In this document: piece by piece, positions 1 through 47,443 of the stretch | How positions within the stretch are numbered: the stretch's first letter is position 1 | How the letters are laid out: each line of letters begins with the position of its first letter | Source: a bacterium | GTDB taxonomy: Bacteria > Hydrothermota > Tepidihabitantia > Tepidihabitantales > Tepidihabitantaceae | Direction of reading: 5' to 3' | Length of the DNA: 47,443 bases | Assembly: GCA_046485285.1 (NCBI GenBank) | Contig: JAWOHE010000084.1 | Location: 1 to 47,443 of the forward strand | Notes under the pieces: model-generated | Databases searched by the model: none | What the model saw: the letters and a program-made list of their open reading frames with translations, nothing else | What the model was told of the DNA's origin: nothing | Position numbers and translations under genes: made by a program

Positions 1-84
1 CTTGAGCACTTCCGGGTCATCCAGTAGAAACCCTTGTCCGGGCGCCTCGGCTGTGTTACTATCGGTCATTCTTCTTGTGGCCAT
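1..84 (-). CDS. 5' end of a hypothetical protein running off the window (MATRRMTDSNTAEAPGQGFLLDDPEVLK...)
   Basis: ATG at 84 preceded by a strong RBS (AAAGGAGG on the minus strand, 90-97); open frame to the window edge. Confidence 0.6.
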   Translation of the reverse strand, partial: MATRRMTDSNTAEAPGQGFLLDDPEVLK

Positions 85-185
85 TCGAGCCTCCTTTCGA
101 TCATAACTGACGCCACATTCTCATCGGAATGCGGCACGGCTCAATGGCCACTCTCTCTTTGCCAATTTGCAGACATTATGGCACG

Positions 186-372
186 CAACTAACCGTATGC
201 CCTACCGTTACCCCAACCGTTCCCCTAACCGTAGGCCCTACGGCTACCCCTACCGCTGCCCCTACCGTAGGGCTAACGGCTCCCCCAACGGTAGGGCTAA
301 CCGTTCCCCCTACCGTACCCCCTACGGTACCCCCTACGGTAGGGGGTACCGTAGGGGGTATGGGGGAGGGGG
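186..372. repeat. 12-bp-period tandem array, about 14-15 degenerate units (e.g. CCCCCTACCGTA / GGGGGTACCGTA)
   Basis: ACCGT/ACGGT-like cores at 192,204,216,228,240,...,348, exactly 12 bp apart. Confidence 0.95.
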
Positions 373-462
373 TAAATTCAGAGGTGAGTGAAGTGCCGTT
401 TTTTCAATCGATTGTGACGATTTCCCGATTGGCCGGGCCGTTAGTTTCTACTAACACAGGCT
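373..462 (+). promoter_or_regulatory. Conserved leader with palindromes CAATCGATTG (405-414) and GTTAGT-N4-ACTAAC (440-455); candidate operators
   Basis: Both palindromes are conserved in the inverted paralogue at 46811-46861. Confidence 0.6.
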
Positions 463-636
463 ATGGATAGTAATGTGAAGGTGGCTGGCTATGGCCCGGG
501 AGAGACGGTTGCGCCGGGTGCGGCGTTACGCGGGTTGCGGCGGCGGGCCGGGAGCGAAGCCGAGGAGGAAGGCGCAAGGGGCACGAGGAAGGAAGGGGAG
601 GAGGGAAGGGACGAGGGCAGAGCGCGGAAGGCGTAA
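463..636 (+). pseudogene. Truncated XRE-family HTH gene (N-terminus only, then runs into a purine-rich repeat)
   Basis: MDSNVKVAGYGPGETVAPGAALRGLRRRAG aligns with the N-terminus of the HTH ORF near 46800 (ADSDAKVAGLRPGETVALVAVSRGLWLRAG); homology ends near 552. Confidence 0.65.
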
Positions 637-659: not shown

Positions 660-704
660 AGGGATTTCTCCACTCCGGCCTTGCGGCCGTCGGTCGGAAT
701 GACA
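660..704. repeat. REP-like palindromic element
   Basis: AGGGATTTCTCCACTCCG...GGTCGGAATGAC matches the reverse complement of 46349-46387. Confidence 0.7.
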
Positions 705-25188: not shown

Positions 25189-25204
25189 TCCGCCCCCACC
25201 TGCC

Positions 25205-25420
25205 TTCCCCTAGCGGCCCCGGGGACGCCTCCCCTAGCGGTCCCGGGGGCGGCCTCCGGGACGGCTCCCCTAGCGGTCCCCGGGGTGGCCCCCGGAACCG
25301 TCCCCCCGATATCCCCGGGAGCGGTTCCCCGGACGGCCCCGGTAGCGGTCTCCCTAGCGGTCCCCGGGACGGCCCCGGGAACCGTCCCGGGGATATCCCC
25401 GGGGATATCCCCCGGAGTGC
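25205..25420. repeat. 12-bp-period tandem array, about 18 degenerate units (CCCCTAGCGGTC / CCGGGGATATCC type)
   Basis: TAGCGG/GGACGG/GAACCG/GGATAT cores at 25211,25223,...,25415, exactly 12 bp apart. Confidence 0.93.
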
Positions 25421-25530: not shown

Positions 25531-25797
25531 GTGCAGGCCGCGTTCGACGGCATCTTCGCGGCCGAGTCCGAGACGCGGGCCGTGCTCAACGCCGAAGGCG
25601 TGAGCCTGACCCTGTATCCGTACTACCTTGCGTTCGGCAGGGAGATGTGGAAGCTGACCAACCGGGTGAACGGGGAGGCGGCCGCGCTCGAGGCGGCAAA
25701 CCTCGTCGCCAAGTGGGTCGCCCGAGGGCTTTCACTGTCGGTGCTGGGGAAGATAAGGTCGAACGTGTTCAGCGTTCCTAAGCCCGTCGGTCCGTAA
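25531..25797 (+). CDS. Small helical protein resembling the SIRV2/Adnaviria major capsid protein, probably 5'-truncated
   Basis: AVLNAEGV....YLAFGREM.KLTNRV.G.A......L......L...VL pattern matches my recollection of the rudivirus coat protein C-terminal helical bundle; coding-like codon usage; no RBS; in-frame stop at 25450. Confidence 0.55.
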   Translation: MQAAFDGIFAAESETRAVLNAEGVSLTLYPYYLAFGREMWKLTNRVNGEAAALEAANLVAKWVARGLSLSVLGKIRSNVFSVPKPVGP

Positions 25798-46149: not shown

Positions 46150-46460
46150 TGTCATTTCGACCGCAGCGCAGCGAGGTGAAGGAATCACTTTCCGGTCCTC
46201 CGCCGCCCCGAACCCGGACCAAGGGATTCCTCCAATCGGCGGCTGCCCGCCTCCGTCGGGATGACAGCTTGCAGTGGCTGTGCCGCCTCCGGCAAACCTG
46301 ACTGTGACCCCTCCTGTCAACTCGCCCGACGGCCGCAAGCCCCCTCCCGTCATTTCGACCGGAGCGTAGCGGAGTGGAGAAATCCCTCTCCTGTCCTGTG
46401 GGAGCGACATCCCCTTCTACTTCGCTCAGAGCTTGCCCTGAGGCACTCGAAGGGGCAGGC
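46150..46460. repeat. Cluster of REP-like palindromic elements
   Basis: TGTCATTTCGAC..GGAATC (46150-46186) inverted with GATTCC..GTCGGGATGACA (46223-46266); GTCATTTCGAC..GAGAAATCCC (46349-46386); CCCTTCTACTTCGCTCAG..CTGAGGCACTCGAAGGG (46412-46455). Confidence 0.75.
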
Positions 46461-46539
46461 TCTGTCGCGATCCGATTCGACATATCGCGGTTGTGAAACC
46501 GCTCCTACATCCAAACCGCACGGAGCCCACACCATCCCT

Positions 46540-46803
46540 CATCTCGAACGACGCGCCGCAGGCCCGCCTGCGCGCAACGCGCGGGCAGGCCCGCAGGTAA
46601 TCGGCAATCAGCCTCAGCGTCGGGCGCCCCACCCGGCCGTGCTCAAGCCGGCTGAGATGCGAATAGAAGCCAGGCTCGCGGCGCATCAGGTGCGCCAGCT
46701 CGACCAGGCTCAGCCCGGCCCGAAGCCACAACCCGCGTGACACCGCAACCAACGCAACCGTCTCTCCCGGTCTAAGGCCAGCCACCTTCGCATCACTATC
46801 CGC
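46540..46803 (-). pseudogene. XRE-family helix-turn-helix gene, apparently truncated
   Basis: RAGLSLVELAHLM......HLSRLEHGRV..PTL..IADYLRAC HTH pattern; the ATG of the paralogue at 463 is GCG here; frame runs on into REP repeats. Confidence 0.7.
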
Positions 46804-46893
46804 AACCTGTGTTAGTAAAAACTAACGACCCGGTCGACCAGAGAATCATCGCAATCGATTGAAAAGCCAGAACTTGATTGGGCCTTGAATTTA
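46804..46893 (-). promoter_or_regulatory. Conserved leader with GTTAGT-N4-ACTAAC (46811-46826) and CAATCGATTG (46852-46861)
   Basis: Inverted paralogue of 373-462. Confidence 0.6.
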
Positions 46894-47147
46894 CCCCCTC
46901 CCCCATACCCCCTACCGTACCCCCTACCGTACCCCCTACCGTAGGGGGAACGGTAGGGGGAACGGTAGGGGGAACTGTTGGCCCTACCGTTGGGGTAACC
47001 GTTAGCCCTACGGTAGGGGGAACGGTAGGGGTAGCCGTAGGGCCTACGGTAGGGGTAGCGGCTGGGGTAACGGTAGGGCATACGGCTGGGGGAACGGTAG
47101 GGGTAGCGGTTGGGGGAGTGCGGGTGGGGATGGGGGTAGCGGGCGGG
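46894..47147. repeat. 12-bp-period tandem array, about 17 clear units plus a degenerate tail; inverted relative of 186-372
   Basis: ACCGT/ACGGT-like cores at 46914,46926,...,47106, 12 bp apart. Confidence 0.95.
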
Positions 47148-47443
47148 TGTCAAAACCAGGACATAGGTTACGCTTAATTATCACGACATAGGTGACACTT
47201 TTGTCTGCCGGCGACCCGCACCTACGCTTCTGACTGACATATCAGCCGCCCGCAGATAGGCTTCACTACGCCGATCGGCAGGTCGCAGAACCAGACCCGC
47301 CAGGTCTTCTCGGCCAGACTCTCCAGCCCGACCGACGTCTTCCCCAAGGCCGCGCTCAGGTATACAGCCTCGTTCTGTAGCCAGATACAGCCGTCACGCC
47401 GAACATGCCGCCGCTCGAATCCCGCCGGGTAGCCGTACGGCCT
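47148..47443 (-). mobile_element. Right end of an IS481-family insertion sequence (partial)
   Basis: Terminal TGT at 47148; two GACATAGGTKAC sub-terminal repeats (47160, 47185); transposase C-terminus adjacent. Confidence 0.8.
47222..47443 (-). CDS. IS481-family transposase, C-terminal part
   Basis: My translation: YPAGFERRHVRRDGCIWLQNEAVYLSAALGKTSVGLESLAEKTWRVWFCDLPIG..., typical IS481 C-terminal domain; stop at 47222. Confidence 0.78.
   Translation of the reverse strand, partial: RPYGYPAGFERRHVRRDGCIWLQNEAVYLSAALGKTSVGLESLAEKTWRVWFCDLPIGVVKPICGRLICQSEA

Follow-up and report, generated by a model that had tools for sequence, protein, structure and literature searches.

The stretch of DNA analyzed here (in the following the window) is 47,443 bp in length and carries, close to each of its two ends, an array of 12-bp tandem repeats followed by a conserved leader and the beginning of a gene for a helix-turn-helix (HTH) protein, the two copies being inverted to each other. 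This raises the question of what such a cassette is, how often it occurs and what the array does. On balance, we favour the explanation that both copies belong, in a decayed state, to a family with about 35 members; its intact form would consist of an upstream control region with an iteron-like array and the gene of an XRE regulator. The module of array, G-rich box (here named G-box) and regulator gene is probably an undescribed control element.

The window corresponds to contig C96 of an assembly of 102 contigs and 2.34 Mb (here named G000) with 69% G+C and 88% completeness. Homologues were compared in 41 genomes for the regulator family and at 60 foreign loci for the layout of arrays and G-runs. 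The genomes of the relatives are fragmented, so that the repeat counts given for them are lower bounds.

Structure of the two cassettes in the window

The features of the two cassettes, together with those of a third array located in between, were the following (coordinates, strand, description and basis):

1-185 (+): end of an insertion sequence (IS_A) cutting into the left array; nine genome copies with 97-100% identity
186-345 (+): left array, type T1, unit approximately CCCCCTACCGTW, distally cut by IS_A; TRF period 12/24/36 at 189-341, aligned with other copies
335-379 (+): left flipped units, forming a palindrome, and G-box GGGGAGGGGGTAAATTC; G-box pattern match at 363-379, flip visible in the sequence
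380-462 (+): left leader with the palindrome GTTAGT-N4-ACTAAC at 440-455 and a degenerate putative promoter; 31-copy alignment and promoter scan
463-636 (+): left XRE gene remnant, a 57-aa ORF with about 30 homologous codons followed by a purine-rich repeat; ORF and alignment
661-702 (+): REP-like small repeat 3' of the left copy, GGGATTTCTCCAC...GTCGGAATGAC; the halves match the genome 49 and 61 times
25190-25412 (+): third array, type T3, of a second, gene-less family, ending in GGGGATATCCCC; TRF and array typing
46349-46390 (-): REP-like small repeat behind the right copy; genome motif matches
46426-46785 (-): right XRE gene remnant, a 119-aa ORF with recognisable HTH part and unrelated remainder; family match
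46559-46585 (-): 27-bp GC hairpin repeat, inserted in frame after '...DYLRAC'; missing at that spot in the intact C19 gene
46786-46886 (-): right leader with the palindrome GTTAGT-N4-ACTAAC (46826-46811) and a degenerate putative promoter; 31-copy alignment and promoter scan
46887-46972 (-): right G-box (46887-46903) and a palindrome with a 29-bp stem, formed by flipped units; G-box pattern and DNA folding
46941-47147 (-): right array, type T1, with distal box CCCCACCCGCACTCCC at 47129-47114; TRF 46906-47117, 14.8 copies of period 12
47148-47443 (-): end of a second insertion sequence (IS_B) adjoining the right distal box; 3 of 3 full IS_B ends adjoin the distal box of an array

By blastn of the genome, positions 346-552 (+) matched 46920-46714 (-) with 81.2% identity over 207 bp (E 1.2e-51). 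Pairwise alignment of both copies showed homology from the array via the leader to approximately codon 30 and none past this point. Both results agree with the original prediction, made from the sequence of the window, of an inverted pair that is homologous through array, leader and about 30 codons. The damage it had noted in both HTH genes was confirmed as well, as the ORFs of 57 aa (left) and 119 aa (right) compare with 269-293 aa in intact genes, and so was the REP-like palindrome following each copy (motif at 661 (+) and 46374 (-)). The extent it had given for the right copy, 46540-47147, covers only a part, as remnant and REP-like repeat extend the copy to approximately 46349-47147.

The switch to purine-rich sequence in the left remnant represents a junction common to several copies of the genome (here named class B). 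The right remnant shared 68% identity with residues 6-76 of the intact protein encoded on contig C19 and no similarity further on. Its score for the HTH_31 domain was 19.1 bits and thus under the Pfam cut-off of 27; with only about 30 codons left in the other copy, neither of the two encodes a whole HTH_31 domain. A scan for the sigma-70 consensus found no sites in 1-900 (left copy) and 46300-47443 (right copy). The right palindrome, folded as DNA, reached -38.1 kcal/mol (z -5.6), and none of 200 shuffled sequences folded as well. The two features are dead remnants of family members, not working members. In annotations, pseudogene is the better label for the two ORFs, and the arrays are best entered as repeat features.

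Both cassettes are located at the 3' ends of convergent housekeeping genes, encoding a DinG-like helicase and CarB (carB), respectively, and both remnants point inwards, towards these genes. In total, 24 of the 32 scanned proteins of the window had Pfam matches (E<=1e-5), all to ordinary cellular families, including helicase, Omp85 protein, C25 peptidase, PurA, phosphoglucomutase, two glutamine synthetases, AsnA, CarAB and a Lol/MacB-type transporter; the other eight were without match. The cassettes had originally been tied to a capsid-like locus. No capsid family was present among the 24 of 32 proteins with a Pfam match, and no functional link of the cassettes to such a locus was seen. Across the whole window neither Rfam 15 at gathering score nor a tRNA scan gave a match.

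Copy number and composition of the cassette

Leader and gene start gave 31 blastn matches on 27 contigs of G000 with identities of 66-100%. The most divergent match was the one on contig C19 (66%), all others ranged from 73 to 100%. A 17-nt pattern of the G-box, allowing up to 1 mismatch, occurred 35 times in G000, 24 times in the sister species G004, five times in G002, twice in G001 and not in G003. In 36 further genomes of the family and order it was found 0-1 times each, which is the range of the reversed pattern used as control (0-1 occurrences). The BLASTN count that had been proposed as a check, together with the number of G-boxes, thus bears out the claim of a multi-copy element. An all-against-all comparison of +/-4 kb revealed a shared core from about -250 to +400 around the G-box, with unique flanks. 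Of the element boundaries that had been proposed for definition, the core could therefore be delimited, however without a fixed right boundary.

The original prediction had also considered that only two copies exist or that they result from misassembly. Both window copies are located less than 550 bp from the contig ends and adjoin IS ends, as an artefact might. However, 31 leader matches on 27 contigs speak against two copies only, and the divergent sequences, the unique flanks and a copy that is positionally conserved in another genome (G004) speak against misassembly. With 31 copies in unique flanks, two copies only and a simple assembly artefact are therefore ruled out, and we attach practically no probability to either.

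In the aligned copies the cassette consists, in this order, of the distal box CCCCACCCGCACTCCC (common to most of them), the array, one to three flipped units, the G-box GGGTATGGGGGAGGGGGTAAATTC, the leader and the start codon. The flipped units form a palindrome between array and G-box. The leader of approximately 100 bp contains the very conserved blocks TTTTCAATCGATTG and CGTTAGTTTCTACTAACATAGG ahead of the start codon. Its consensus, derived by eye from 31 copies, shows TTGACC-N17-TAACAT with GTTAGT-N4-ACTAAC over the -10 and an ATG a few bases behind. We read TTGACC-N17-TAACAT as a putative promoter, from the consensus and by eye; its hexamers are degraded in both window copies.

At least four types of array units were distinguished by their palindromic core, here named T1 (TACSGTA), T2 (AGTWACT), T3 (GACSGTC-like) and T4 (GGTSACC). 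Both arrays at the ends of the window are of type T1. The four types occur in G000 with nearly the same leader and HTH remnant. Array type and kind of downstream junction were scattered over the leader tree without clean subfamilies (187-bp alignment, weak signal), and the copies are therefore mosaics.

G000 contains 58 typed arrays of the 12-bp kind, about 33 with G-box and about 25 belonging to a second family. Arrays of this second family carry the same kind of distal box, end in one to three GGGGATATCCCC palindromes, are gene-less and often form tandem pairs about 80 bp apart. The third array of the window is one of them. Behind it an 88-aa ORF is located (25531-25797, +), which had no Pfam match but DNA relatives on contigs C98, C24, C82, C16, C73 and C101 with 68-81% identity. 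A separate arrangement was seen on contig C65 (3218-3647; loci L002/L009), where two cassettes lie head to head with divergent leaders and a perfect palindrome of four units is placed between two inverted G-boxes.

The regulator gene family

A search with the protein of contig C19 (293 aa) gave 25 matches in G000, only two of which covered more than 90%, namely C19 itself and the protein of contig C4 (269 aa, 73% identity to the C19 protein). These two are the intact HTH copies for which a search had been suggested. The other matches ended within the first 70-140 residues, were frameshifted or contained stops. Differences between copies were not codon-phased (0.141/0.152/0.147 at the three codon positions), and the copies therefore drift as pseudogenes.

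The intact C19 protein matched HTH_31 (PF13560) with 34.2 bits at a gathering cut-off of 27, in agreement with the XRE type that had been assigned to the gene from the remnants. In 9 of 11 foreign homologues the score was also above 27 bits, the exceptions being L060 (21.5) and L064 (26.9). An AlphaFold model of the C19 protein reached a mean pLDDT of 82, and a fold search with this model had matches in the N-terminal XRE domain only (ClgR 3f52, C.BclI 2b5a and C.AhdI 1y7y; TM to target 0.74-0.86). For the helical C-terminal two thirds of about 200 aa no Pfam or fold match was found. Within the helical tail (C19 residues ~240-255; alignment A2) we noted a conserved basic motif, GRGRRRKTR, which reads RGRPRK in other genera and contains an invariant arginine. 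We take this motif to resemble an AT-hook.

Matches to the regulator family were present in 37 of the 41 genomes (1 to 17 in each), mostly as open frames of 220-420 aa. Homologues in the databases are named 'XRE-family regulator' or 'hypothetical protein, candidate division WOR-3 bacterium' only. The regulator is restricted to this bacterial family, which goes by candidate division WOR-3 in the naming of database homologues.

Conservation of the layout in other genera

At 21 foreign loci the excess identity at lags of 12, 24 and 36 bp was 0.09-0.10 in windows centred at -360 to -120 from the start codon of the regulator gene, as compared to about 0.02 elsewhere. About half of the windows at -360 to -120 exceeded 0.08 versus 0-12% elsewhere. 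In the larger set, phasing at 12/24/36 bp above 0.08 was found at -400 to -130 in 35 of 60 foreign loci and was weak or missing in the other 25. Constant-period tandem repeats of period 12 are thus located directly 5' of a gene for a DNA-binding protein at 35 of the 60 loci. A run of at least four G was present in the bin -120 to -88 in 40 of 60 foreign loci, with only 1-15 of 60 in the other bins.

When broken into lines of 12, the foreign arrays show up to approximately 30 units, in each of which about 7 nt form a conserved core and about 5 nt vary. Among paralogues the core is not the same (GAGCAAC, ACTGCGGG, AGTAGCT and GGTCACCG). Palindromes over the -10 region were seen by eye in many of these loci. 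Since phasing and G-run position are kept across genera, array, G-box and putative operator are the native upstream region of the regulator family rather than a peculiarity of G000.

Evolution of the arrays

Between two paralogues of one foreign genome (L055 and L074) the coding part is 97% identical and the leader almost unchanged, the arrays however share only 76% identity. These two arrays align with 0 gaps over 300 bp, and the mismatches are spread evenly over the codon positions (26/25/21). The arrays of the orthologues L087 and L089 shared 73% identity, again with 0 gaps and with mismatches mainly at the variable unit positions. Cores are kept within each array and spacers vary. The arrays are non-coding, evolve faster than the gene and keep their phase.

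That the array, on either strand, could instead encode a small protein with four-residue repeats is suggested by long open frames over GC-rich arrays, for example 113-aa ORFs across both window arrays, and by frames which give GVTP/PGVT or L-x-E-E repeats (by eye). Long open frames of this kind arise by chance because units free of stops are repeated. Moreover, a 3-base periodicity is absent (identity at lags 3, 6 and 9 was not raised in foreign arrays), a conserved start codon or ribosome site was not recognised by eye, and the repeat peptides are unrelated between lineages. Four of the five loci of lowest GC (L060, L062, L063 and L064; array GC 0.40-0.47) have no frame open throughout the array, and the fifth (L051; array GC 0.48) has two reverse-strand frames open through the whole array. 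Based on the even mismatches over codon positions, the lack of 3-base periodicity and the closed frames in four of these five low-GC loci, we rejected the array as coding sequence and regard this possibility as highly improbable.

Insertion sequences and small repeats at the cassettes

What lies on the far side of the arrays had been left as a question by the original prediction. Besides gene 3' ends, we found ends of IS_A, IS_B and a third insertion sequence (IS_C), second arrays (C101, C89) and an inverted partner cassette (C65). Seven of nine copies of the IS_A end adjoin a 12-bp array cassette or sit less than about 35 bp from it, and six of seven IS_C copies were located at array cassettes, as were the full IS_B ends listed above. 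Beyond the window such neighbours of IS end and array occur on contigs C98, C95, C94, C39, C7, C11, C21, C33, C87, C68, C63, C85 and C57. The junctions vary by copy, and the IS ends are therefore separate insertions into a preferred target. It looks as if three unrelated IS families share a target preference for the arrays or their boxes. Because IS insertions cluster at the cassettes, 19 of 31 copies are found less than 1 kb from a contig end.

On contigs C93, C55, C86, C91 and C95 the 3' ends of co-directional genes are located upstream of the array and share a common C-terminal tail and a 60-bp spacer. An interpretation of this tail as 'T9SS sorting tail' was discarded, as Pfam and NCBIfam gave no support in the two proteins tested, which had only LVIVD repeats and a sub-threshold match to choice-of-anchor B.

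Two kinds of small repeats were associated with the regulator remnants. The two halves of the REP-like repeat (GGGAYTYCTCCAC...GTCGRARTGAC) had 49 and 61 matches in the genome, and its units are inserted in regulator remnants. The 27-bp GC hairpin unit had 12 genome matches and is likewise inserted, with one to three tandem copies at the same codon of many remnants, among them the copies on contigs C93, C94 and C65; it was not found in the intact genes.

Age and mobility of the cassettes

The two sites of the window were compared with the related genomes G001 and G004. Downstream of the orthologous helicase gene, G004 carries a cassette in the same orientation, of a different unit type and gene-less, and G001 has ribosomal protein genes instead. 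Downstream of carB the cassette is absent in G004; at this site G001 (L120) has a 12-bp array in opposite orientation to the right cassette of the window. The helicase site is therefore filled in G000 and G004, and the carB site in G000 and G001, not G004. The array of L120 has the unit GCTGACAAGTAG and ends in GGTGACCCCGGGGGTGACCCC and a G-rich box.

From these differences it follows that cassettes were gained, lost and rearranged within the genus, with at least one in place since two species split. In G004, the 24 G-boxes compare with only 5 regulator matches. Five of 12 G-box loci read in this genome have one leader type, and by eye none contains a recognisable regulator. A tRNA gene (Phe, Arg) was located approximately 250-300 bp behind the G-box in two of five cassette loci scanned in G004 (L112 504-578 and L114 532-605).

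The cassette had been described as a 'non-autonomous element or regulatory module'. A MITE-like non-autonomous element would be moved in trans by a transposase, with the regulator fragment as passenger and with distal box and G-box as imperfect terminal inverted repeats around the tandem array. This is consistent with the agreement, read by eye, of 14 of 18 positions between distal box and reverse-complement G-box, with the left end of the copies on C65 and C95, which is an exact inverted G-box, with tens of copies in unique flanks and with the expansion of different subfamilies in two species. The lack of a cassette downstream of carB in G004 and the occurrence of arrays without gene fit as well. 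However, leader and gene start are part of the shared core of every copy even though the putative inverted repeats do not enclose them. The copies vary in their right boundary and are 73-86% alike rather than nearly identical. One window copy is positionally conserved in G004, and in other genera the layout of array, box and promoter precedes intact genes, where units correspond one by one as orthologues with 0 gaps. We therefore consider a mobile element of this kind unlikely, and self-mobility of the cassette is the less likely reading in general. Of the two parts of the original description, the multi-copy nature and the regulatory layout held, and the mobile element was not supported, given the variable right boundary, the non-identical copies, the positional conservation in G004 and the layout before intact genes.

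As far as can be judged from the sequences, duplication and recombination among copies would fit better than active transposition. An old cis-control region which was multiplied and decayed would fit the layout before intact genes in other genera. In the present genus the module may thus have multiplied via duplication and recombination between copies; most of the gene parts would have died afterwards, with arrays and leaders persisting.

Putative function of the array

In its intact form the proposed module would read, from 5' to 3', as a distal box rich in C; an array of 10-30 units, each exactly 12 bp long (core of ~7 nt, variable part of ~5 nt); a palindrome of C-run and G-run; a G-rich box approximately 100-120 nt ahead of the start codon; a promoter with a palindrome of the 16-bp type over the -10, likely an autoregulatory operator; and the regulator gene. 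The conserved cores are phased, the register is kept, the array is located 5' of an HTH gene, and units are both direct and flipped; therefore, an iteron-like track acting in cis is best supported. Most likely, the array would function as an iteron-like track for protein binding, where a sequence-specific protein may bind side by side every 12 bp. Most simply, this protein would be the neighbouring regulator or a partner of it, and binding along the array could set or insulate the promoter, with TubR/tubC and StbA/stbS as models.

Some observations count against the favoured explanation. About 25 arrays of the second family are without gene, and 25 of 60 foreign loci are weakly phased or unphased. 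The occurrence of four unit types on nearly the same leader and HTH remnant argues against a simple co-evolution of regulator and array, even though these genes are dead. In addition, frequent 6-mers of the array were not significantly enriched in the promoter region of the same locus (own mean 0.26 vs 0.14, permutation p 0.105, 31 loci). Resemblances between array and promoter seen by eye, AGTAAC and ACTAAC at C19 as well as GGATGA and GGATAA at C4, are therefore anecdotes.

Arrays might also be signals at the level of RNA or DNA structure, either C-rich Rho-utilisation (rut) sites or G-quadruplex/hairpin insulators, which would stop upstream read-through before the promoter. On the sense strand both T1 arrays of the window are rich in C (C-skew +0.42 and +0.51), and their C-tracts recur every 12 nt. 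They agree with the rut consensus of RhoTermPredict (C>G, C every 11-13 nt over 78 nt; PMC6407284); the skew is however not general among foreign arrays. The strong hairpin at the array end (z -5.6), the positional conservation of G-runs and the co-directional gene ends upstream of the array in several copies point in the same direction. Against this, of 29 strongly phased foreign arrays 8 had a C-skew above 0.1, 8 had one below -0.1 and 13 had one near zero, T3 and T4 arrays of G000 are without skew, and a rut site does not need a conserved 7-nt core in each array. The mixed strand skew of the 29 foreign arrays gives no support to Rho/rut as an explanation for the whole family, and structural signals as the function of the arrays seem quite improbable.

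A more specific version of the iteron-like track can be put forward only tentatively, and we see it as rather unlikely. Here, each paralogue would have its own track, on which the XRE regulator or a partner polymerises over 10-30 sites up to the G-box; the filament would set the state of the promoter, and IS homing as well as a role of relics as sinks would follow. If so, a principle resembling plasmid centromeres would be employed many times over on one chromosome, the three unrelated IS families would home to the filament or to its DNA structure, and gene-less relics could still act as protein sinks or recombination substrates.

Relation to known systems

REP/BIME, BOX and MIRU-type elements are dispersed intergenic repeats of modular composition, with variable internal tandem units and palindromic parts, located at gene 3' ends; REP/BIME elements are known IS targets. 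The cassettes resemble them in having tens of dispersed intergenic copies, in being modular and palindromic and in their location at gene 3' ends. They differ in the unit of only 12 bp with strict phasing, and in carrying a putative promoter and operator as well as a gene start, in a layout that is kept before intact genes across genera.

With ClgR and the C-proteins of restriction-modification systems the C19 family shares the N-terminal fold, the HTH_31 domain and a palindrome overlapping the -10. It differs from them by a helical C-terminal part of about 200 aa that has no Pfam or fold match. To our knowledge, upstream array and G-box have no counterpart among XRE autoregulators of the ClgR/C-protein type, and in the open-access literature searched no description of the element was found.

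A precedent for binding of 12-bp iterons by an HTH protein is given in a preprint (10.1101/2022.04.29.490116). According to the same preprint, tubC of pBtoxis, bound by TubR, contains seven 12-bp repeats, and stbS of R388, bound by StbA, consists of 9-bp repeats with 2-bp spacers (10.1101/2022.04.29.490116). These systems share with our arrays the tandem direct repeats of fixed period just 5' of the gene for an autoregulated HTH protein and the units of core plus spacer. In contrast to them, the present arrays are located on the chromosome, at 1-17 paralogous loci per genome; they count 10-30 units, flipped ones among them, a G-rich box closes them, and their binding is putative. A further difference is that the present regulator is of the XRE type with a long helical tail.

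If the favoured explanation is true, a whole bacterial family (candidate division WOR-3) would use an undescribed device upstream of promoters, with 10 to 30 phased 12-bp sites and a G-rich cap before up to 17 paralogous regulator genes per genome. Higher-order DNA binding on chromosomes could then be tested on a concrete case, and insertion sequences would be seen to home naturally to a non-coding target with structure. Many contig breaks in these metagenome-assembled genomes would find their explanation as well.

CRISPR arrays consist of repeats of 21-48 bp with unique spacers of similar size between them. We rejected this class for the present arrays, which have a period of only 12 bp with about 5 variable bases. 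Finally, a period of 84 occurred in 14 genome-wide TRF rows, the length of seven units of 12 bp and also of eight turns of 10.5 bp.
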